Source of the DNA: a virus
Lineage: Duplodnaviria; Caudoviricetes
Virus record (IMG/VR): IMGVR_UViG_3300026549_000032
Location: 128,001-192,000 of that record
Reading direction: 5' to 3' (one strand)
Length of the DNA stretch: 64,000 nt
Shown in pieces: positions 23,634-63,329 of this stretch (positions within the stretch are counted from its first letter, which is position 1; the number at the start of each line of letters is the position of its first letter). The notes under the pieces were generated by a model. The model searched no databases, had not been told where the DNA came from, and saw nothing but the letters and a program-made list of their open reading frames with translations. Both the position numbers and the translations under genes were made by a program.

Positions 23634-24779
23634 TCATCTGTTAATGCTAGTAATGGCAGAAACAGAATTTGTGACCAACTTTGTGTTCGTAGTGAACTGC
23701 TGCAGGTCCCTTGCTCCTGCATATGACATCGCTGATCGTAGGTAATCTGTGAAATTCTCGACCCAAGCCTGCATGGTATACTCAACATCAAGTGTTGTTT
23801 CAATGCCCTCGCTCGTATGAGTCTTTTTACCGTTCATGGCTAACTGGCCACGTTTGGAAGCCATGCCATAGAACGTCTTCTTGATAGTGACCGGCCCGAG
23901 AAGGGTATTATCATCCTTCCACGCCATAAACTCGCCACTACCAAAGGTAACCCTATAGGTACCCATGAATTTCGTTAGATCATCTTGTTGTTGTTTGTCC
24001 TCGGGATCAACCCAAGAGACGGTTCCGGGAGCTGCGCTTTCTAGCATCTTAGTGAAGACAGAGCCAATCATGACTCGATCCGCACCCAAGGCTAAAGCTT
24101 TGATGGCGTCACTATATCCACGTACTCCTCCATCAGCCACTATGAGCGGAGTAGTATGGACCAATTGACCGCCTTCAGTTAACAGCCGCTTCTTAATGGA
24201 AGAAATCTCATTCAGGAGAGATGCCATAGGATATCCTACCCCAGTATTGGAAGAGGTTATGCAACCACGACCAACCCCTATACCGACTCGTACGTAATCG
24301 GCACAAGCTCTAGCGGCCGCTAGATAGGTTTCGGGATTCGCTATGTTCCCTACCATGACAATAAGATTCTTCGTCTGGGCCTTGGCTGAACGGACTAGGT
24401 TGTATAACTTTTCCATATGACCGTTCGCTATGTCAATGAGGACACGGAAGAACTTTCCATCCCATCCGTCCCAGATTGACTTTACGAAATACTCCTCAAA
24501 CTCTCCCAACGACATAGCCACCCAATACCCAAGACTGAGTAATTGGAGACGATCTGTAAGGGATTCCGTTCGAGGGATGATCGGTGTTATACCCTGAGCG
24601 ACCCAGAGATCCATATTATTAATCCCAATAACCGAATCCATCGGTGCCGTGAAGAGAGGAAGTTTATTAGTTCCTTCCTCTACGTAGGGATTGCAGTCTT
24701 TTCTTGAATCAATGGGGCTGACTGCTGCCGGTACAATTGAAACATCTTTATAGGAAAATTTCAATTCTGTATCTAACAT
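23634..24779 (-). CDS. IMP dehydrogenase / GMP reductase family enzyme (no CBS domain)
   Basis: TAPMD, IDIANGH, VGNIA, RVGIGVGRGCITS (catalytic Cys), ADGG, FYGMAS, SEG and LRSAMSY.G. Confidence 0.92.
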   Translation of the reverse strand: MLDTELKFSYKDVSIVPAAVSPIDSRKDCNPYVEEGTNKLPLFTAPMDSVIGINNMDLWVAQGITPIIPRTESLTDRLQLLSLGYWVAMSLGEFEEYFVKSIWDGWDGKFFRVLIDIANGHMEKLYNLVRSAKAQTKNLIVMVGNIANPETYLAAARACADYVRVGIGVGRGCITSSNTGVGYPMASLLNEISSIKKRLLTEGGQLVHTTPLIVADGGVRGYSDAIKALALGADRVMIGSVFTKMLESAAPGTVSWVDPEDKQQQDDLTKFMGTYRVTFGSGEFMAWKDDNTLLGPVTIKKTFYGMASKRGQLAMNGKKTHTSEGIETTLDVEYTMQAWVENFTDYLRSAMSYAGARDLQQFTTNTKLVTNSVSAITSINR

Positions 24780-25756: not shown

Positions 25757-26477
25757 AGTAAGTGAGGCTTGGTACTTCGGAAACAGAGAATATTTAAGTG
25801 AGGAAGTTGAAAAGAACGCCCTTGACTTCGAAAAACTAATTGACCCTAAGCTCTGGGAAGAAGATGATGAAGCTGACACCAATGTAACTGGTTGGGGCAC
25901 AGTTACTCTGGACTTCTATGTTCCTGATAATGGGCTAGTATCGGCGGAGGTCGGCAAGACAAAAGTTGGTTATTTTACGGACTTCGATCACGGAATTAAT
26001 TATGGGTCAGACGGATTTGATTGGCCTGATCATACAAAAGTAAGCGACGAAATGTTAGAATGGTTTTTGAAAGGAAAGAATAAGAAGATGGAAGAAGAAA
26101 AAGAATTCCTCAAGCAGAGAGCAATTTTCTGTGGTCTACCCAACGTTTGGGTTATGTATAAAGATACTCCATACCTTGTCTTTGGATATGGGGCTGGAAG
26201 ACTAGAACTCTTGACTAGTCCGCTTAGTTCGTGCACATACCCAGAAGCTCCTCTTATCAAAGAAGTTCAAGTTATCCTAAGAAAAGAGGAAGACCTAAAC
26301 GAAGAGGAAAAGAAAGAGTATGCTAAGATTGGTATGACTGACGAGCTTGAGGACTGGATGAATATACATTGTGTGGATCATCGAGACTTAATTTCACGGG
26401 GCTGGGCCGTTGATGCTGTTAGTCTAGGAGACAAGAACCCGTATAAATACGGAGTATGCTTTGGAGGCTTGATATAA
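25749..26477 (+). CDS. Hypothetical protein with a related C-terminal domain
   Basis: DWMNIHCVDHRDLISRGWAV resembles DWLNKHHFDYRGLIEKGLA of 44274. Confidence 0.75.
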   Translation: MSKVSEAWYFGNREYLSEEVEKNALDFEKLIDPKLWEEDDEADTNVTGWGTVTLDFYVPDNGLVSAEVGKTKVGYFTDFDHGINYGSDGFDWPDHTKVSDEMLEWFLKGKNKKMEEEKEFLKQRAIFCGLPNVWVMYKDTPYLVFGYGAGRLELLTSPLSSCTYPEAPLIKEVQVILRKEEDLNEEEKKEYAKIGMTDELEDWMNIHCVDHRDLISRGWAVDAVSLGDKNPYKYGVCFGGLI

Positions 26478-26830
26478 TACATATCGAAGTAAACGATTGG
26501 GATCCGACCGACAAAGAAAAAGAGTTAATAGAATACATAGAAGAGCAGGGCAAAGAGAATGACGGCTATAACTACTGTTGGACTATGTACGACATGGCTC
26601 AATACTACTTAATAACTACAACAAAGAGGTGGTTAATGGAACATGGATTTGAATCCTTGATTTCTCATGCTGCCGATTGGGGTTATCACTTATATTCACT
26701 CAGAATGTATCCCACTAAATTTACGGGAGAATTCTTAGATGGATTTGATAACGAGATTTATGCTGGGAAGGAAGAGATAAATAAGTGCCTCCTGAGAGGG
26801 ATAGAATTAGGATATCGTAAAAAGAAATGA
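26456..26830 (+). CDS. MxW-tag protein (MLWRLD)
   Basis: ORF track plus N-terminal tag. Confidence 0.75.
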   Translation: MLWRLDIIHIEVNDWDPTDKEKELIEYIEEQGKENDGYNYCWTMYDMAQYYLITTTKRWLMEHGFESLISHAADWGYHLYSLRMYPTKFTGEFLDGFDNEIYAGKEEINKCLLRGIELGYRKKK

Positions 26831-26857
26831 TATCCTTTTCTTTTTCTTATAGGTGAT

Positions 26858-27247
26858 ATGATATATAAATTTAGAATAAAACCAGAGTTAATGTGGTGGA
26901 GGTCTGGAAAAGATTATGCAACAGACAATCCACGTGACCTCTGGGAAGTAACTAATTATTTAATCGAAAGATCATTGAAAGAGTTTTTCGAATATAGGCC
27001 AATGACACTTACAGCCAAATATGAGATGGAACGTACTATAGAAGTAGCCATCGAAAAGTGCATACGAGGATATACAGGTAAATGTTCTATTGAACCTGAT
27101 TGGTTTGTACACCTAGTGGGAAGTTGGTATCCTGAAGCACTTTCAAATTATGGTGGGAGTATGGACTTGGTTATCTATAAGCCGGAGGAGTTAAAAGTAA
27201 TCATCAACTCTCTGATGGTGGCGAAGTACATGCAGAAACTCTTATAG
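26858..27247 (+). CDS. Mx[WFY]-tag protein (MIYKFR), possible tail-sheath-like segment
   Basis: LIERSLKEFFEYRPMTLTAKYEMERTIE weakly resembles tail sheath C-terminal helices (recalled). Confidence 0.7.
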   Translation: MIYKFRIKPELMWWRSGKDYATDNPRDLWEVTNYLIERSLKEFFEYRPMTLTAKYEMERTIEVAIEKCIRGYTGKCSIEPDWFVHLVGSWYPEALSNYGGSMDLVIYKPEELKVIINSLMVAKYMQKLL

Positions 27248-27251
27248 GTGT

Positions 27252-28195
27252 ATGGAAGAAAAGAAAATAAAAGACCTAGAAAAAGAACTACGAGAAGTAG
27301 ACGAAAGAAGAAAAGAAATCATTAAAGAAATGGCTGATCTCAGAGCTAAGATTGCTACTAAGAAGTTTAAAGATATGATAGGAGGGTGTTATAAGCATCC
27401 TAACTATTACTGTGGCAGTCCGAGGTCAGAGCATTGGTACATATACTCAAGAATAACTGGTATCTCTGGGATGGATTCTCTAGGGGATCCGATCTACGTG
27501 ACGGAATCTATTCAGAAGACTTGTGATGGAAGGATTGAATATAACCCGAATAATCATGAGACTATGAATAGTAATGACGTGGGTGGTTGGATCAAGATAT
27601 CCTTTGAAGAGTTTATGAAAGCAAGAACAGAAATCTTATGCTTGACTTAAATTATAGGAACACAAACCCTGGGGACCTGGTACAGGGGAAGAAAACAGGA
27701 ACACTCCTCAGAGTCTTGAGGGTTGAGAAGGATGGCCTTTTCGTGGAGGGTTTCAAACAGAAAATTCAATACGAAGACGTAGAACCTTTCTGGATCTATC
27801 CCATTGAGAGGGTTGAAGCCCTAAAAGATATAATCATGGCTGACCCAAGAGAAGACATCGATGGAAAAGGAGATAAGAAGTATGAGTTCTGGTTTGGGGA
27901 TTATAAAGTTTTAACTTTCATGAAGTCGGTAGGTAATAAGGTTAGTGCTTCATGGAGAGAATATCTCCAGACGCCTACCAACCTAGATATTACCACAGAT
28001 CGTTTCAGTGATGTTCAAAGGATGTTCTTTGAGGCAAGTGATGGGTACAGAGAACTACCACTTACCCTTCCAAAACTACCAACCTTAAAGTGGAGGTGTT
28101 TGGGTTGTGGTCGAGTAATGGCTGAGCCTGGACCTCATAGATGTGGTAGTAACTTCCAAAAACATCACTTGACTTGGGAAAATTTGATACTATAG
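27252..28195 (+). CDS. Two hypothetical proteins (27252-27650; 27638-28195 with C-terminal Cys/His cluster)
   Basis: Overlapping ORFs in operon. Confidence 0.7.
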
Positions 28196-28241
28196 GGGAC
28201 GTAAAACACGTCCTTTTTCTTTTCACTCCCTTACCTCTGAA

Positions 28242-28918
28242 ATGAGATTTAATTTAATTTATAAAAGAATTAAAGATACAGATCCAATAGAGATTCCTAG
28301 TCTGGTGAGGGATGATGAAGGAGGAGCATTATCAGGACCAGAAGCTTATAAAGCATTCTGGAAAGCCTATAATGAAACTCAACGCACCATAAACGCGCTG
28401 ATATATCAGTTAGAGATGGTACGTGACTCACTTAACAAGGAATCTAATCAAACAAATAATATATGCTAATCCGGATAACAAATCAGAAACTGATTCGTGA
28501 TGCACTGAATAGATTAGCAGACTTAATGTACGAAACTAATGGACACTACCTCAGGAAGGTTCTTTACGTGGACGATTACTTGTATCTAGGGCGACACGGT
28601 AATAATCTGAAGTACTCTGATAGGTTGGGCATAGTATGTGTAAAAGCATGGCAGAAAAATTGGAGAGAAGGTTACTTCTTAATGAAAGAATTAGCGACCG
28701 TCTTAAATTCTCAAACCCTCGCTCTACCTTTCGAAGAAGTTCAGAAAAGAATCTGGCAGGAAGCTGTTAATAAACCTTCTAATGTAGATTACCTAGAGTA
28801 CTTAGATAATGCTTACATAACTGTTATGAAGTTTAATAGCATTGTGTTCAATTGGTTTTGGGCTAACTTTTTACATCACTGGGACAATGTTGTGGCAGCC
28901 TATAGAAAGAAAACCTGA
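28242..28918 (+). CDS. Two hypothetical proteins (28242-28469 MRFNLI; 28463-28918)
   Basis: Follow the promoter-like motif at 28229. Confidence 0.7.
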
Positions 28919-29393
28919 TGTTGTTATATCTATGGGGAGGTCCTATGTAGAGGATTTCCTCGCCTCAAAAAGAAAGATGAGCGAACAAATTCCCTCCTGG
29001 ACAACAATAGCTAGGTGGAGAGGTCATCCCGGAAGGGGGATAAGAGATTTTGGTTTAAATATAACAGATGCTCCTTTTACGAGAGAACTCTTACATGACT
29101 GGTGGGTACATGGAATCGTATCAAACCAGTGGAGAGGTGTCGATGGTACAAAAGCTTTGGAATTATTACCAAACAAAACTATTCATGACGCACTCCGTGA
29201 ATTTATCTACCCAGAAGTGAGTGGTGATTGGAGTGCTAGAGAGGAAAGAGAGGAGAAAGCTTTTGCGTTAGCAATTGTTAGGATAGACTCTCTATGGACT
29301 AAGTTTTGTGAATATTTTATAATTAGAAGATTAATATATGATAGAGTACAAAGAAGGGAACATTTTCACATCTCTAGCGCAGACTATTACTAA
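28887..29393 (+). CDS. MxW-tag protein (MLWQPI)
   Basis: Internal ATG of ORF 28842..29393. Confidence 0.7.
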   Translation: MLWQPIERKPDVVISMGRSYVEDFLASKRKMSEQIPSWTTIARWRGHPGRGIRDFGLNITDAPFTRELLHDWWVHGIVSNQWRGVDGTKALELLPNKTIHDALREFIYPEVSGDWSAREEREEKAFALAIVRIDSLWTKFCEYFIIRRLIYDRVQRREHFHISSADYY

Positions 29394-29967
29394 TACAGTA
29401 AACCTGATGGGAGTCATGGGAGCTGGCTTGGCGTTAGTCCATAAAGCCATATTTCCAAGGATGTATCAAACCTACAGGGACTACTGTAAGGCTGGTCAAT
29501 TTAAAGCAGGTCAGCTTTGGGTATGGGATCAGTCCTGGAAATGGCAGGTCTTAAACTTCCCGACGAAACGACATTGGCGTGATTGGTCAGAGATCCCTCT
29601 CATCGAAATGGGACTAATGAACTTAGTGAGAACGTATCAGGAGAGAGGAATAACTTCTCTGGCAATACCACTCCTGGGTTGTCAGAATGGTCACCTGAAA
29701 GAGAAGGATGTACTGCCAGTCATGGAGAAGTGGTTAGGACAGATGAATATCCCCGTAGAAATATGGAGACGAAATCCTGATGCCCCAAATCCAATCTGGA
29801 ATGAGCTTAAGTTTAAGTGTTCGGCAGGGAAGACAACTTTCGAGAGAATAGTTCTGGAATGTGAATCTTTCGAGGACTTGGTTAAACGACCAGGTATAGG
29901 AAGAGACTCTTGGGCTAAGGAAACAGGTAAAATACTAGGGATAGAGAAAGATGATATTCAGAATTAA
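29338..29967 (+). CDS. Macro domain protein (DarG/Poa1-like ADP-ribosylhydrolase)
   Basis: GNIF, NTVN..GVMGAGLA, NFPTK.HW and SLAIP.LGC.NG.L motifs. Confidence 0.9.
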   Translation: MIEYKEGNIFTSLAQTITNTVNLMGVMGAGLALVHKAIFPRMYQTYRDYCKAGQFKAGQLWVWDQSWKWQVLNFPTKRHWRDWSEIPLIEMGLMNLVRTYQERGITSLAIPLLGCQNGHLKEKDVLPVMEKWLGQMNIPVEIWRRNPDAPNPIWNELKFKCSAGKTTFERIVLECESFEDLVKRPGIGRDSWAKETGKILGIEKDDIQN

Positions 29968-30097
29968 TAATGATATATCTGACCTTGTCGGTTGGTATAA
30001 CGGAATACCTGTCATCCGAGTAGATCGAAGGGAATTGAAAAGAAAATATCTGACCTTCTTGACGATGCGAGATTTATTCGGAGTTCAGTTTATATGA
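29951..30097 (+). CDS. Microprotein MIFRIN (48 aa) with capsid-like G-x-Y-x-G-x-x-V segment
   Basis: Hand translation MIFRINNDISDLVGWYNGIPVIRVDRRELKRKYLTFLTMRDLFGVQFI, ATGA overlap with the next ORF. Confidence 0.75.
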   Translation: MIFRINNDISDLVGWYNGIPVIRVDRRELKRKYLTFLTMRDLFGVQFI

Positions 30098-30204
30098 AGT
30101 GGAAATTGAAAACGATAATTGCATCTTGGAAAGGGAAACAGCCCGTATTCCATGCAGAAAGATTTCCATTTCGTTTCTGGAATGAAATTTGGTTACCGGG
30201 ATGA
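30094..30204 (+). CDS. MxW microprotein MKWKLK (36 aa)
   Basis: Hand translated, ATGA overlaps at both ends. Confidence 0.75.
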   Translation: MKWKLKTIIASWKGKQPVFHAERFPFRFWNEIWLPG

Positions 30205-30368
30205 TTTGGAAAATAAATCAAACAGAAGAAATTGGGTACTCTATAACCCATGATAGACCTGTCTATAATTTTAGAAGGGAATATGGCCAAACAACTAGTA
30301 GCAATATATCTGATTGGTTTAAAGAATGGTATGGGAAGTTAAAAATACTAGAAGGAAACTTAGAGTAA
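30201..30368 (+). CDS. MxW microprotein MIWKIN (55 aa)
   Basis: Hand translated, ATGA overlap upstream. Confidence 0.75.
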   Translation: MIWKINQTEEIGYSITHDRPVYNFRREYGQTTSSNISDWFKEWYGKLKILEGNLE

Positions 30369-30508
30369 CTGTTAAGATACCTTTTGGCAAAGTATCATCC
30401 AATGGGATAATATATAACAGTGAAGCTCTTCTTGAAGCGATCAAAAGCTGTAATGGCCTAGGAGAGATAACTCATAAAAGTTCTGACGGACTATGGTTTG
30501 GAGTATAA
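30326..30508 (+). CDS. MxW microprotein MVWEVK with prohead-protease (gp21-like) fragment
   Basis: VSSNGIIYNSEALLEAIK...LGEITH resembles gp21-family N.NGRIY...L...LGEL.H. Confidence 0.75.
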   Translation: MVWEVKNTRRKLRVTVKIPFGKVSSNGIIYNSEALLEAIKSCNGLGEITHKSSDGLWFGV

Positions 30509-30726
30509 GCCAAGAGGTATTGTTTAGTGAAACCGTCGATAGATTCATGGGAGAATGGCAGAAAATACTTAGAGCGAGTATGCGTGCCTTCAGTGCTTCC
30601 ATGACAGTTGACTTGAATCCAAAGAATATAAACTATGTCACGAAGACTTCGACAGGAACGTGGATTCCAAGTCAGTATGACATAGATACGACTTTGGGAA
30701 ATAACAATATAGGATATTCGACATGA
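30493..30726 (+). CDS. MxW microprotein MVWSIS (77 aa)
   Basis: ORF track. LFS..VDRF is shared with the next ORF. Confidence 0.8.
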   Translation: MVWSISQEVLFSETVDRFMGEWQKILRASMRAFSASMTVDLNPKNINYVTKTSTGTWIPSQYDIDTTLGNNNIGYST

Positions 30727-30884
30727 CTTGGGAAGTAAATGCGATACTGTTTAGTAGGAAAGTTGATAGATTCTCTACTAAATTTAGAAGCTCTTTCCGA
30801 AAGGCAATGATGCTTTCCTACATGTATGGTGGGGATGGACATGTCGTATTTGATTACGAAACAGCAGGATGGAGTGGAAGTTAG
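30723..30884 (+). CDS. MxW microprotein MTWEVN (53 aa)
   Basis: Hand translated MTWEVNAILFSRKVDRF.., paralog of 30493, ATGA overlap. Confidence 0.8.
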   Translation: MTWEVNAILFSRKVDRFSTKFRSSFRKAMMLSYMYGGDGHVVFDYETAGWSGS

Positions 30885-31123
30885 CGAAACTAGGAATGCC
30901 TAAGCGTTTTTATGATAAGTTAGTCAGAGATGGGAATATAATATTTGCTCCCTACATGCCACTAACTAGTACGCCAACCATAGGCAACTTCAGCAATCCC
31001 GCGCAAACCGTAAATACCAAATATTATTGTGCGGATACTACTATCTGGTCTTCTAAGAAGATACATACTATCCGTCCCTGCACGCTTGACGAGGGAGGAG
31101 ATAGTGACGTTAGTGAAACATGA
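30869..31123 (+). CDS. MxW microprotein MEWKLA with major-capsid C-terminal-like fragment
   Basis: DGNIIFAPYMPLT...TKY resembles gp23-family G.YYAPYV.L...TRY. Confidence 0.8.
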   Translation: MEWKLAKLGMPKRFYDKLVRDGNIIFAPYMPLTSTPTIGNFSNPAQTVNTKYYCADTTIWSSKKIHTIRPCTLDEGGDSDVSET

Positions 31124-31290
31124 CTTGGAACTTTTCAGACACAATGACCATGGCGATAGAACAGAGGGGAAAGATGGGAAGAGGTCCTAAAAGACCTAAC
31201 CTACTCTACTGTTTTAAGACTTGGGTTGAATTGAAAGAGAAAAATGAAACGCTTTTCAAGGCGTGTGAGAAGGAGCTTTTGAGGAAATGA
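31120..31290 (+). CDS. MxW microprotein MTWNFS (56 aa)
   Basis: Hand translated, ATGA overlaps. Confidence 0.75.
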   Translation: MTWNFSDTMTMAIEQRGKMGRGPKRPNLLYCFKTWVELKEKNETLFKACEKELLRK

Positions 31291-31391
31291 TTTGGAGGAT
31301 CAATCCAAGAAAACGGACAAGGACTAGTGGTGTGTTTATCTTGACCAAGGATGGACTTAAGCCTATAAACATTCCGAGGACATGGAAATGA
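31287..31391 (+). CDS. MxW microprotein MIWRIN (34 aa)
   Basis: Hand translated, ATGA overlaps. Confidence 0.75.
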   Translation: MIWRINPRKRTRTSGVFILTKDGLKPINIPRTWK

Positions 31392-31513
31392 AGTGGAATA
31401 TAGACATAGATATTTCAAAAGTCCTCCGCCTACGGAGATTAGAATTGATGATGTTTGAGTATTACATTAATCATGATCTGGGACGTATTAATCGAAGAAA
31501 TAGGACTTGCTAA
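31388..31513 (+). CDS. MxW microprotein MKWNID (41 aa)
   Basis: Hand translated, ATGA overlap. Confidence 0.75.
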   Translation: MKWNIDIDISKVLRLRRLELMMFEYYINHDLGRINRRNRTC

Positions 31514-31598
31514 ACTAACCATCACTACTTCAACTAAAACAACAACTCATACATGTAAGTTGACGTTAATAACCTCCAGCGATGGTGTTAAACGTTGA
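31473..31598 (+). CDS. MxW microprotein MIWDVL (41 aa, Thr-rich)
   Basis: Hand translated. Confidence 0.7.
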   Translation: MIWDVLIEEIGLAKLTITTSTKTTTHTCKLTLITSSDGVKR

Positions 31599-31606
31599 AA
31601 GAAGAT

Positions 31607-31816
31607 ATGAGGTGGGAGTTTAGTGAACTGGTTAATAGATATGTTAGTCCTCCTATCCCAACACTAGATGATATGTCTAACTTAACCTTCTGGGAAAACA
31701 CCAACAGTAATCTCAGAGATGGGATAAAGGCATACAAACAATTATTACACGTTTACAATGCTTTGGGAGTTAAACCTGATTTTGAAACCCATCCTGTGGT
31801 GGGCGAGGGATTCTGA
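31607..31816 (+). CDS. MxW microprotein MRWEFS (69 aa)
   Basis: Internal ATG of ORF 31595..31816. Confidence 0.75.
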   Translation: MRWEFSELVNRYVSPPIPTLDDMSNLTFWENTNSNLRDGIKAYKQLLHVYNALGVKPDFETHPVVGEGF

Positions 31817-32024
31817 GATTTTCATAGTAGACAGAACCACAGATCCGGTCACCCAAGTAATAGAAGATACAGATGCAGCCTGGAATAGCTATCATGAATA
31901 TCAAGCAAAGTACGGGACAAGACTCTTTCCAGAGTACCCAAGCAGGAATGACTGGTATTTTGCAGTAGCTATGACTATGCTTGAGAATGGTGATTATAAA
32001 CTAGAAGTATGCAGTGGGAAATAA
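31758..32024 (+). CDS. MxW protein MLWELN (88 aa)
   Basis: ORF track. Confidence 0.8.
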   Translation: MLWELNLILKPILWWARDSEIFIVDRTTDPVTQVIEDTDAAWNSYHEYQAKYGTRLFPEYPSRNDWYFAVAMTMLENGDYKLEVCSGK

Positions 32025-32392
32025 GAATAAATCCTAAGAAGTCAGCTAAGATACTAAATGATGAGGTGAGACTGATGGATATGATCCTAGAAGCTGAGAA
32101 AACTGGAGTTCGTCCAGACACTCTCTACTTTAAAAATCCTTTCGGCGGAAATAACCTTGATTACTCTCACTTCAAAGACCTACAGTCTTGTAGAGACAGG
32201 TGGGACGATGTTGAAGAACTAATCCTTAGGAAAAATGTAGTCATGCATAGTTACGTCGCAACTGTCGGCAGGAACTATGAAGGCTATGTCAAGTTTCTTA
32301 AGAGATGGAAATGTGATAGGAGTATAATCTCTGAAGAGAACTTTAATAAGTGGTGTGATGAGGTGGAAAATAGATCAAGCGAAGATGTTTAA
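32009..32392 (+). CDS. MxW protein MQWEIR (127 aa)
   Basis: ORF track. Confidence 0.8.
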   Translation: MQWEIRINPKKSAKILNDEVRLMDMILEAEKTGVRPDTLYFKNPFGGNNLDYSHFKDLQSCRDRWDDVEELILRKNVVMHSYVATVGRNYEGYVKFLKRWKCDRSIISEENFNKWCDEVENRSSEDV

Positions 32393-32465
32393 TATGTACT
32401 TTGAATATTTTCGCGATAAGATCTTCAAAGCAGCGAAAATTCCAAAAGAACGTTTTAGTCAATGA
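32358..32465 (+). CDS. MxW microprotein MRWKID (35 aa) with portal (gp20-like) fragment
   Basis: Hand translated MRWKIDQAKMFNMYFEYFRDKIFKAAKIPKERFSQ. Confidence 0.8.
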   Translation: MRWKIDQAKMFNMYFEYFRDKIFKAAKIPKERFSQ

Positions 32466-32575
32466 CTTGGAAGCTCTATGACACCCCAGAAGACAAGGCT
32501 AGGTTTGCTTTGTGGAAGTTCTTGAAGGACGAAGCATTTAAGAAGCTATGGAATGGAAACTCACCGACGACCTAG
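32462..32575 (+). CDS. MxW microprotein MTWKLY (37 aa)
   Basis: Hand translated, ATGA overlap. Confidence 0.75.
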   Translation: MTWKLYDTPEDKARFALWKFLKDEAFKKLWNGNSPTT

Positions 32576-32721
32576 AAGGGAATACTCGTTTGATTCTGAG
32601 AAAGTACACTGGGTTGAAACTTACTGATTCAGTGAAGGCTAAAATGGAAGAAGACATAAAGAAAGCCGTTATCACAGAATGGTTAAAAGGCGGGCTTAGT
32701 TCGTTATGGTCTGGAAAGTAA
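32548..32721 (+). CDS. MxW microprotein MEWKLT (57 aa), possible tail-sheath-like segment
   Basis: Hand translated ..LEGNTRLILRKYTGLKLTDSVKAKMEEDIKKA.. Confidence 0.75.
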   Translation: MEWKLTDDLEGNTRLILRKYTGLKLTDSVKAKMEEDIKKAVITEWLKGGLSSLWSGK

Positions 32722-32816
32722 CTAATGTACTAAGACCACATCAGAAAGAGTTTTTCGGTTGGCTTAAAGGAGAAGTAGAAAAGAAAATGCAGGAATTAAT
32801 AAAGTTGGGTATCTAA
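32706..32816 (+). CDS. MxW microprotein MVWKVT (36 aa) with Q-motif-like LRPHQKE
   Basis: Hand translated. Followed by a terminator-like hairpin and the next promoter-like motif. Confidence 0.75.
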   Translation: MVWKVTNVLRPHQKEFFGWLKGEVEKKMQELIKLGI

Positions 32817-32843
32817 TCCCAATTTTATTTTCCTTATTCGTGT

Positions 32844-33170
32844 ATGATTAAAATATTAATTTCAGAATTACAACAGAGAGAGGACAACTTTGCGAAGATG
32901 CGCGAGTTGACAACAAAAAACGATGAAATCCGCGATCATGTCGCCTTTCTAGTTAGTCAGACCAACTTGAGAGGCTTGATTGTGGGAAAACTTGGTAAGA
33001 CTGCCGACTTTGATCCTGAGGTCGATGAGTTTGAGATTATCGGGTATGAGAAGTCAGAGGATGCTAAACAAGTCAGATTTAAAGTCAGCGTTAAAAAGAA
33101 CGAGATGGACTTAGGTCGAGCAAGAGCAACTATGCTTGATGTTCGTCTGACGGACTGGATTGACTTATGA
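32844..33170 (+). CDS. Hypothetical protein
   Basis: ATG 1 nt after the promoter-like motif at 32832. Confidence 0.8.
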   Translation: MIKILISELQQREDNFAKMRELTTKNDEIRDHVAFLVSQTNLRGLIVGKLGKTADFDPEVDEFEIIGYEKSEDAKQVRFKVSVKKNEMDLGRARATMLDVRLTDWIDL

Positions 33171-35855
33171 TCTTTCGTCTGAACAAAAAAGCGGCGGACT
33201 TATACTACTGGACCATGGGTTATAGGCATAGGAAGGGATTACTTCTCTTACAAGCTAAGCCAGGAGAGCTGTTTAAAGAGTTCTTGGTGGATGACCCAAG
33301 GTATTCTCTGAGAGGAATTGCTAAGAGAGTATTAAGGGTTGGGCCATGATTTGGAAAGACGTAGCTTTTACTTATAACTTCATTAACGAGGAATACTTAG
33401 CTATAGAAGTTATCAGGAACGAAAAAGAAACGGCAGAGGAATTGGGATATAATCCTTGGGGAATGCTAAGTAAAGTTAGCCTGGATGACGGACTTTGGTC
33501 TCAATTTCTTGGAAGATGCTACGAGACAATCGGAAAAGCACCTAGAATCAGGAGAGACTATTTCAACAGGCTCTTAGATACTATAATGCCTGATCCGAAA
33601 CTCATGTTTCATATGCCCATTGTTACTAATCTTTATACTTGTACGGAAGATTTTATCACAAACATGGGCTACTATTCGACCTATGAGAACTACATAACGT
33701 ATTTCACTGGAAAAGGGTGTTGGAAGAAAGCCCTAATGACTGAAGAAGAATTTACGAATCTGTCTAACCTGATTAGTACTACTTATGATACTAGAGAATC
33801 ATAAAATAGACGACTATAGTGATGATAGCATAGTCTGTGGATATTGTCCAGAGAACTTAAGGGAAGAGGAATTAAAGACTTTTGTTCCTCTTTTTACTGT
33901 TATCCAATATGACATAGGACTCCTGCGAGGACAAGAGTGGGAATCTGGAACTGGCTTGGAATGGTTTGTCTGGTATAAGAAACAAGAGAACCATTGGACC
34001 TATCCGGTCTCCACAAAACCAGACCCGTTTTATACATCAATGGACGCCGACGGTAAAATGGTCCGTGGATTTGTTGATGATAGATACTATCGAATTCACA
34101 TTCTCTCTATAAGTGGTGAAGGAGATAGATACTCTTCGTACGGCGGAGTTTCACTAGTCATAGATAGGTGGAATGGAGAACCGCATGTGGTAGGGATTGG
34201 TGAAGATGATGGTTGGTTCTTTCCAGAGACTCTCTATTGGAGGAACTTAGACAAAGAAGGAATCAATAAGTGGGAACTCTGGAGACTGTGTCAAGCTGTA
34301 GGAGATGTTAGGTGGGAAGCTTTCGGTGAGGAAGAAGACTACGGACAGAAAATAAAAGATTGGTTGTATGGTTTGGGGAATAAGTAATGTTTGGATAACC
34401 TATGCCATGTACCAGGGATACAGAACAGTTCCCATGAGAAGTGACCTGGATATCTTTGAAAGGTCTACTAGGGATAGTGGAAAGCTACTTAAGATCTATA
34501 TGGATGAACTAAAGGAACACTTTCCAAAGGCCTTTGAAGAGAACCCTTTGATAGGAACTTATAATAGTCCATATCAAGAGAGTTTTGAACAGTACAACCT
34601 TCGGTACCTAAGGTACATGAGAATATTCTCTTGGAACTCGGACCTGAGGGCAGCACTGTGGGATACTTACAAATACTCTGTCATGATTCCCTACAGGAAG
34701 AACAAACTTCTACGAAAGCTGGCAAAGGAATGCAATAGAACCATGCGAAGAGAACCAGACTTTATCAGGTACATCTTTAGCAGAGAAGACATAACTAAGT
34801 ATAAAGTGGTATAATTAAAAAAAATACAAGTATGTTGTTAATAGTAATGATTATTTTCTGGAGTATTGTATTAGTAGGACTCTTAGGATACACATTAATT
34901 AGTGAGTACAAAGATTGGAGAAGAAAGAAAACTATGGAAGCCAACTTAGAATACCCTCCTAAGACGCCCATCAAACTTTTCGCAGTCAAACATGTCCTTC
35001 ATTGGAAATTAGAGGGAGATGATTTTGACATGGGAAAGGTGAAGGAAGCTAAGAAGGAGTGCATCAGGTGGCTTAATGCGACGATCTATAAGGAACCTGG
35101 ACTGGAGAGTATAGTAGTAGTTTCTCCAGAAGACCTAAACAAATGGAGAGACAAGTTCCGTACCTTAGGCGATATGAAGGCTTGGATAAAGGAACAGGAC
35201 GAAATACTTGCCGAATACATAAAGATCAAAGAAGGAAACTTCGAATAGGTGTGAACTGGCTAGGGGTAAGAGATAAGAGAGTAATTTACGAATATCTTCG
35301 CCTGTACGACGATAAGTTCAACGACGGACTAGACAACATCTACGAACAAAGCGCTCTTGAGATTGCTCAGTGGTTTGAGAAGAGATGGCCAGATAAAGAG
35401 CTAAAGTCGAAAGGAACAGTTGCTCGAAGCTTATTGTATACTTTCGGTTACAATCAAATAGGAGACGTCTTGGCTGAACTAATAATCGACATAGAGGCAT
35501 TGGGCAGAGCTTTTGAAGAAGAGATCGTACCAGAAGCAAGGGGTTGGATATGAATTGGATGAGAGTTAAGAATAAGGACGTAATCACGGTTTACGTTAAT
35601 CTCTTCGAAGAGATCCAACCGAAAAGAGCTGGAAAGATACTTCTCGATTGTTTCCAAGATAATGTAGAGGACTTAGTAGAATGGCTCAAGGTGGAAAGAC
35701 CAGATATAGACATAACTAACCCAATAGGTAACTTAGAGGGAGATAAGAACATAATCGATGCCTTATGGTCGGTGAGGTCAATCTGGGATGCCTTCCTGGA
35801 GAGGATCGTAGAGCCGGTTAATGATGAACTGCCGGGGATGGTGCCAGTAATGTGA
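33167..35855 (+). CDS. Operon of hypothetical genes: 33167 (MIFRLN), 33346 (MIWKDV), 33785, 34368 (MVWGIS), 34832 (TM), 35251 (GTG start, MNWLGV), 35550 (MNWMRV)
   Basis: Overlapping ORFs, five of seven with the Mx[WF] tag. The last two are paralogs (NW..V..K.VI..Y..L). Confidence 0.75.
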
Positions 35856-35885
35856 GATGACTAAAGGCGGTCATCTTTTTTTTTT
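35855..35885 (+). terminator. Intrinsic terminator
   Basis: AGATGAC..GTCATCT stem followed by a long T run. Confidence 0.8.
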
Positions 35886-63161: not shown

Positions 63162-63329
63162 ATGGTCTGGAATTTCACTAAACAGCTAAAAGCTATTCGT
63201 TCTAGGACAGGAGCAGGAATGGCTAACATTAAACGAGCTTTTTTCAAGAATAGATGTAATGTAGATAGAGCCGTAACAGATATTAATGGATTTCCGGATA
63301 GTGGATATGTAATCTTAAGTACGAAATGA
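63162..63329 (+). CDS. MxW microprotein (55 aa) carrying an EF-Ts N-terminal-domain-like segment
   Basis: Hand translated MVWNFTKQLKAIRSRTGAGMANIKRAFFKNRCNVDRAVTDI.., compared with EF-Ts [30 protein letters not shown]. Confidence 0.8.
   Translation: MVWNFTKQLKAIRSRTGAGMANIKRAFFKNRCNVDRAVTDINGFPDSGYVILSTK

Follow-up and report, generated by a model that had tools for sequence, protein, structure and literature searches.

The DNA analysed here, which we call the window, spans 64,000 nucleotides (bases 128001-192000 of the 218,381-bp IMG/VR virus record IMGVR_UViG_3300026549_000032) and contains, at positions 29951-32816, a row of 18 micro open reading frames (ORFs), 17 of which begin Met-x-Trp (M-x-W). 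By comparison with related metagenomic contigs, the row is an array of hypervariable cassettes, found in a clade of uncultured giant phages, and it encodes real micro-proteins of 33-127 amino acids (aa), with some larger neighbours. The tag at the N-terminus, M-x-W-x-hydrophobic, persists while the bodies behind it turn over. We tentatively favour the reading that the tag is a shared N-terminal docking strand onto one common partner, with the body giving each protein its individual activity.

The 18 ORFs, all on the + strand and 34-127 aa long, tile the region with a sole gap of 8 nt (31599-31606). The first starts MIFRI and the next 17 (30094-32816) all read ATG NNN TGG; Trp3 is followed by a mostly polar residue 4 and then by I, L, V or F. 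The tiling and the 17 consecutive Trp3 starts described in the original prediction, an earlier note made from the letters of this DNA, are thus both borne out. For five of the 17 M-x-W ORFs the default call was an upstream TTG, GTG or ATG start (30189, 31382, 31455, 31595 and 32355), and it is the ATG of the M-x-W start, not the upstream start, that is conserved in relatives. The genes are tightly joined: seven junctions are ATGA, another four overlap by 16 nt and read ATGNNNTGGRANNTAR, and the others overlap by 28-59 nt, apart from the one 8-nt gap. In the 16-nt overlaps, the upstream stop is formed from codons 5-6 of the downstream gene, and the tag codons also set the end of the upstream protein (W/C-x-G-x-stop), which is likewise conserved. 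The array and its flanking features are:

29338..29967, + strand: Macro-domain gene, directly upstream of the array (Pfam PF01661, E 7.5e-9)
29951..30097, + strand: ORF1, 48 aa, M-I-F-R-I start (tag with Phe in place of Trp); L007 and L009 have orthologues; paralogue at 33167
30094..30204, + strand: ORF2, 36 aa, M-x-W, ATGA overlap; dN/dS 0.09-0.20, homologue in L005
30201..30368, + strand: ORF3, 55 aa, M-x-W
30326..30508, + strand: ORF4, 60 aa, M-x-W; in all five syntenic relatives (L005, L007-L010)
30493..30726, + strand: ORF5, 77 aa, M-x-W, 16-nt overlap; paralogue of ORF6
30723..30884, + strand: ORF6, 53 aa, M-x-W; paralogue of ORF5
30869..31123, + strand: ORF7, 84 aa, M-x-W; one of two cassettes common to L130 (E 1.6e-11)
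31120..31290, + strand: ORF8, 56 aa, M-x-W
31287..31391, + strand: ORF9, 34 aa, M-x-W
31388..31513, + strand: ORF10, 41 aa, M-x-W; deleted in L008, start motif to start motif
31473..31598, + strand: ORF11, 41 aa, M-x-W; deleted in L008
31607..31816, + strand: ORF12, 69 aa, M-x-W; the only junction with a gap
31758..32024, + strand: ORF13, 88 aa, M-x-W; common to L130; AlphaFold2 (AF2) mean predicted local distance difference test (pLDDT) 65
32009..32392, + strand: ORF14, 127 aa, M-x-W; two homologues only; AF2 pLDDT 60
32358..32465, + strand: ORF15, 35 aa, M-x-W; sub-threshold hint of Portal_T4
32462..32575, + strand: ORF16, 37 aa, M-x-W
32548..32721, + strand: ORF17, 57 aa, M-x-W; sub-threshold hint of EF-Ts_N
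32706..32816, + strand: ORF18, 36 aa, M-x-W; protein identical in five phages (dN 0, dS 0.11-0.17)
32798..32829, + strand: terminator-like hairpin and T-run at the array end (consensus scan only)

In large phages the majority of genes are small ORFans, and gene callers often miss them; this locus shows that comparative evidence alone can firmly establish such micro-ORFs as real genes. An exhaustive HMMER search with ORF14 covered 1.84 billion representatives and returned two homologues, each with an M-H-W start. The two contigs that carry them, together with one metagenome scan, led to five syntenic relatives (L005 and L007-L010); a further contig, L130, was reached via homologues of the Macro protein. 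Identity to the window is about 98% for L007, about 60% for L008, L009 and L010, and about 45% for L005. The same array is present in the same frames in five of five syntenic relatives, and the ORFs are also intact in L130. Over 17 concatenated ORFs, the ratio of nonsynonymous to synonymous substitution (dN/dS, Nei-Gojobori) is 0.17-0.23 in the named frames, whereas the two shifted frames of the same aligned DNA give 0.9-1.5; single genes range from 0 to 0.58. In addition, a frame-specific Markov score ranks the named frame best of six for 16 of the 18 ORFs, and the two ambiguous ones, at 30094 and 31287, are both conserved in relatives. These comparisons show that the micro-ORFs of the array truly encode proteins and are kept by purifying selection, as the original prediction required. 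The ORF11 homologue in L009 (9470-9520) has an A10 run and is apparently frameshifted or degenerate.

The pattern of conservation within the start places the constraint on the protein. Trp3 is kept in all 109 orthologue sequences from 22 tagged families. Position 2, in contrast, varies among orthologues (Q/H, R/I, T/I, K/T, L/T), as does position 4 (K, E, N, S, G, A, D, R or L, acidic as often as basic). Codon 5 remains NTN, and hence hydrophobic, despite changes in its first and third bases (TTG/CTT, ATA/GTA/TTA, CTT/ATC). An invariant Trp3, changing codons 2 and 4, and a codon 5 that stays hydrophobic through base changes show that selection acts on the protein, as the original prediction held for the variation at codon 2. 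Moreover, Phe or Tyr stands in place of Trp3 in the genes at 26858, 28242, 29951 and 33167; these four neighbours point to an aromatic residue, rather than the bases TGG, as what is conserved.

The same bases could in principle act as RNA. In a host without Shine-Dalgarno initiation, AUG NNN UGG RA..U would then be needed to select the start of tightly coupled genes or to reinitiate on them. The setting is compatible with such a signal, given that Shine-Dalgarno sites are absent genome-wide (an SD-like site precedes 18 of 226 genes, and leaders are A/T-rich), that the array genes have no such leaders and overlap the gene upstream, and that UGG admits no synonymous change. The nucleotide logo carries information only at ATG, TGG, R10, A11 and T14, with none upstream and with codon 2 and third positions free, so that the conserved positions track the codon structure. 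In L005 and L130 residue 4 can be G, A, L, Y, T, Q or C, and bases 10-11 are variable there; Phe and Tyr can substitute for Trp, and the motif is also present at the gapped start at 31607. Among coupled (overlapping or adjacent) genes elsewhere in the genome, only 1 of 113 has Trp3, and none of the 45 that are ATGA-coupled; this scarcity shows that the motif is not a general reinitiation signal. We therefore consider an RNA signal very unlikely to account for the motif.

Trp at residue 3 is rare in the rest of this genome. Outside the 26.4-36 kb block of the window, it is found in 3 of 253 predicted genes of the record, against 17 of 17 consecutive starts in the array. The string ATGNNNTGGRA has 30 + strand copies in the 218-kb record, 18 of which fall within 20 kb, so the motif is a local one. 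An IMG/VR scan for three spaced start motifs returned at least 114 stretches; among the matches listed there was no array, and all were chance matches, with at most 0.48 tagged starts per kb compared to 6.3 per kb in the array. We found no description of an M-x-W-x-hydrophobic start motif in the literature.

What follows the tag is far more diverse. When we compared 32 family profiles stripped of their first seven residues, only one of 496 pairs was related (ORF5/ORF6, at 77%) and the others stayed below 25%, which upholds the earlier statement that the bodies are mostly unrelated to each other; BLAST added two weak pairs. When the N-terminal 45 residues of 29 tagged proteins were aligned with MAFFT, only M-x-W lined up, and for this reason we rejected that alignment as a profile. 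Bodies vary from helical to apparently beta-rich at 33-36 aa. It is unlikely that they share one fold that requires the same first strand.

Can simple descent explain the common start? The main rival to a shared docking function is a diverged paralogue family, in which one ancestral micro-gene was duplicated in tandem, the bodies drifted, and the strand is an intrinsic element of folding or self-association (for example, pairing of homo- or hetero-oligomers) with no external reader. Tandem paralogues do occur, namely ORF5/ORF6, a pair upstream of and at 35550, and a 34368-like pair in L009 and L010. A few starts are linked by short repeats in the 5' DNA, several of them sharing 20-27 nt, and recombination from motif to motif would itself yield duplications. 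In several short members a strand, a Pro or N-cap residue and a helix follow one another, which by eye recalls the ribbon-helix-helix (RHH) fold. Paralogues and shared 5' DNA show that duplication contributes to the set; they do not explain the whole of it. The remaining 495 profile pairs are unrelated, sizes run from 33 to 206 aa across helical and beta-rich bodies, and no frame-shifted DNA paralogy between cassettes was detected past the start regions. No RHH Pfam match appeared at E <= 5 for 10 members, nor any other Pfam match at that level. Finally, absolute retention of Trp3 while the rest is randomised would still call for a common function. On balance we regard divergence from a single ancestor, without a reader, as unlikely.

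The original prediction had gone on to treat the bodies as baits, meaning pieces of virion or host proteins, or imitations of them, which the tag delivers to titrate immune sensors (Avs, CapRel, Lit). Three sub-threshold matches hint at this, ORF15 with Portal_T4 (E 0.044; 12.9 bits against a cut-off of 22.9), ORF17 with EF-Ts_N (E 0.038) and the 63162 protein with EF-Ts. The last shares RTGAGM with EF-Ts, its E of 0.57 to PDB 1efu_B is not significant, and it has no Pfam match. With some 30 proteins scanned, chance alone should give about one match at E ~0.04, and the first two hints vanish with family profiles, that of ORF15 in a search against the PDB. Scans of all members and neighbours against Pfam and PHROGs gave nothing above cut-off except Macro, and a PDB sequence search of the bodies gave no match. 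Compared to this phage's own proteins and frames, every body scored E > 0.01 in this one genome; no T4-type portal was found in the record, which is about 60% complete by CheckV. No longer relatives of ORF7 were detected. The AF2 models of ORF13 and ORF14 (pLDDT 65 and 60) returned nothing at E <= 0.001 in Foldseek against the PDB, and a search for ESM Atlas look-alikes of ORF14 gave no usable match. The resemblance to virion proteins thus did not survive any of these searches, all of which stayed below threshold, and no link to Avs-, CapRel- or Lit-type sensors was seen. The one anti-defence trait is the context, a Macro-domain neighbour, which would fit a counter-defence locus. At the level of sequence, the decoy model is largely refuted and we give it next to no credence.

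The Macro gene directly precedes the array in all array-bearing relatives (L005, L007-L010 and L130), and it led us to the most informative comparison. In L130, the Macro protein is 55% identical to that of the window, and the contig is syntenic with window 20.5-31.9 kb (11 kb). Directly after Macro, at L130:10615-12475, lie 14 overlapping micro-ORFs of 33-71 aa; 13 of the 14 start M-x-W and one starts M-A-T-W, and all but one have I or V as residue 5. Only two of these cassettes are homologous to cassettes of the window (ORF7 and ORF13), and the bodies of the other 12 have no detectable relative in the window clade. Of the modular tag-plus-bait system originally proposed, the tag and variable body therefore recur here with other bodies; the bait half is not supported. 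The source record calls only 3 of the 14 tagged genes of L130, which means that such arrays are largely invisible in public annotations. No array was found beside the Macro homologues of L126, L127 and L128 (47-50% identity) or L132 (63%). In L128 (8184-10615), the Macro gene stands in a row with PARG-like and NUDIX genes (ADP-ribose metabolism) and has no tagged array.

Turnover is also visible between close relatives, where whole genes are gained or lost. Identity to L007 varies from 54% to 100% gene by gene, and these jumps indicate mosaic exchange. In L008 (4898-4960, compared to window 31360-31640), ORF10 and ORF11 are missing through a deletion lying exactly between two ATGAAGTGG starts, and the junction consists of one ATGAAGTGG start motif fused to the body of ORF12. 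The repeated start thus provides the microhomology at which genes can be deleted in register and, by symmetry, duplicated. Microhomology inside coding sequence gives precise gain and loss of whole genes. Across these comparisons, the tag persists while the bodies turn over.

The fact that more than 30 families with differing bodies carry the motif without exception requires a function common to all of them. The reading we favour, that of a shared docking strand, divides each protein into two parts. The first is the five-residue Met1-x-Trp3-x-hydrophobic5; if it forms a short beta-strand, its alternating pattern would put Met1, Trp3 and residue 5 on the same face. The other part is a body that differs between cassettes and between lineages. 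The strand would serve as a common handle that docks by strand addition on a single partner from the phage or the host, and the variable bodies would supply differing activities or targets. Cassettes come and go as whole genes, with the start motif as microhomology for deletion and probably for duplication. We infer that the tag is a strand, that it docks to one partner, and that the array has any part in anti-defence. The array probably lies in an early or counter-defence accessory operon headed by the Macro-domain gene; the Macro association suggests a counter-defence or host-takeover locus, as context rather than proof.

Several points weigh against this docking reading. Five residues are very short for a specific docking motif. 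Trp has one codon, and a role of the bases TGG is formally possible. Some cassettes are paralogous or share up to 27 nt of 5' sequence, and common descent explains part of their similarity. In the searches run, and among the matches listed in the IMG/VR pattern scan, the motif is seen solely in one phage clade. The structure models are poor (pLDDT 60-65). The ORF14 model, though of low confidence, speaks for the docking reading: its residues 1-11 fall below pLDDT 50 and the N-terminus is unpacked. The locus shows that dozens of unrelated micro-proteins can be bound into one set by five N-terminal residues, which are retained without exception over deep divergence. If the tag is a handle for one partner, a single peptide and its W3A mutant would open a whole class of phage proteins, and could reveal a new way in which phages arrange their accessory proteins as an arsenal, deliver them or set their timing.

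In a more specific version, which we think improbable, M-x-W-x-hydrophobic would be an address label through which one machine handles more than 30 unrelated micro-proteins as a group, and the array would be a plug-in library of effectors evolving by motif-to-motif recombination. The candidate readers are speculative: a phage ClpC-like unfoldase with ClpP, for scheduled clearing of an early arsenal, or the capsid interior, for an arsenal packed and injected as with the T4 capsid targeting sequence (CTS). The phage does encode a ClpC/ClpA-like double AAA+ unfoldase of 900 aa outside the window (genome 80030-82732, - strand; L003), whose N-domain is diverged and whose linker is acidic, and about 2 kb away a bona fide ClpP (203 bits; genome 84895-85431, + strand; L125), also outside the window. 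A ClpC/ClpA-like unfoldase is also present in the distant relative L128. No ClpS, peptide deformylase or GNAT acetyltransferase, possible readers of an N-terminus, was found in the phage record.

The motif extends beyond the micro-ORFs, as at least eight neighbouring genes share the M-x-W start. The larger ones (26456, 28887, 33346, 34368, 35550, 54135 and 54550) encode 101-206 aa:

26456..26830, + strand: tagged gene, 124 aa, M-x-W start
28887..29393, + strand: tagged gene, 168 aa, M-x-W start
33346..33804, + strand: tagged gene, 152 aa, M-x-W start
34368..34814, + strand: tagged gene, 148 aa, M-x-W start
35550..35855, + strand: tagged gene, 101 aa, M-x-W start; tandem paralogue in relatives
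54135 and 54550: further tagged genes, M-x-W start
63162..63329, + strand: isolated tagged gene, 55 aa; body weakly like the EF-Ts N-terminal domain, not significant

Proteins of the 26.4-36 kb block are Trp-rich even without the tag (3.0% compared to 1.2-1.9% elsewhere), and coding scores in the block lie below those of the rest of the genome. A terminator-like hairpin at 28194-28216, similar to that at the array end, stands upstream of the array unit (consensus scan only). Together with hairpins at 26809-26836 and 35854-35877, these two (28194-28216 and 32798-32829) occupy exactly the block's few intergenic gaps. The block would thus be divided into units of about 1.4-4.6 kb, and the array would close the unit at 28.2-32.8 kb.

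The first ~68 kb of the record hold structural genes with very long ORFs. No tRNA genes were found in the record, no Rfam match in the window, and no DNA match among GenBank phages. IMG/VR yielded no true relatives to ORF14, to the Macro protein or to the A1 profile, and L001 was discarded as a chance match without an array. We also rejected an alternative genetic code or suppressor tRNA: the record has no tRNA genes, array stops mix TGA, TAA and TAG, and long ORFs stay open under table 11. Leaders across the genome are A-rich, and array starts show a purine preference at -3. The type of leader suggests a Bacteroidota host, by inference only; a Bacteroidota-type promoter motif was not enriched. 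Two IMPDH/GMP-reductase-like genes lie at window 15930-17030 and 23634-24779 (- strand), the latter kept in the same place in L130.

Among described systems, the closest principle is that of the T4 CTS, a short N-terminal peptide on diverse phage proteins. The CTS has about ten residues and ends in a site, Leu/Ile-x-Glu, that the prohead protease cleaves. In T-even phages, it is the sole feature common to diverse, fast-evolving small proteins (IPI, IPII, IPIII and Alt), several of them anti-restriction, and it addresses internal proteins to the scaffolding core (PMC3012670). The tag described here differs in that it has five residues, of which only 1, 3 and 5 are shared, with no conserved Glu or cleavage motif after it, and in that the array sits in a non-structural operon. 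Neither PF03420, the T4-type prohead protease, nor PF07230 matched in the record, which is about 60% complete, and the PF03420 control also matched nowhere.

N-terminal signals for AAA+ proteases (the N-motifs of ClpX; the ClpS/ClpA N-degrons Leu, Phe, Tyr and Trp) are alike in being very short hydrophobic or aromatic motifs read by one machine. ClpS, however, reads residue 1, whereas the Trp here is the third residue; with a variable residue 2 there is no uniform processing, and no ClpS was found in the record. In chaperone-usher pilins, an N-terminal donor strand with alternating hydrophobics complements a groove of another protein; these pilins are secreted Ig-like subunits with signal peptides. 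The micro-proteins are neither Ig-like nor signal-peptide-bearing, and the likeness is one of principle only. Membership of the ribbon-helix-helix family (strand-helix-helix, ~45 aa, obligate dimers) was rejected given the lack of an RHH match and the fact that several members have 33-37 aa or look beta-rich.

As a locus, the array resembles the hyperplastic regions of large phages (T4-type promoter early stem-loop (PeSL) shuffling; anti-defence islands), which likewise have packed, overlapping small ORFans, whole-gene gain and loss, mosaicism, and recombination at short repeated boundary sequences. In those regions the boundary is an intergenic promoter or stem-loop; here, it is part of the coding sequence, and what is conserved is the protein motif M-x-W-x-hydrophobic.

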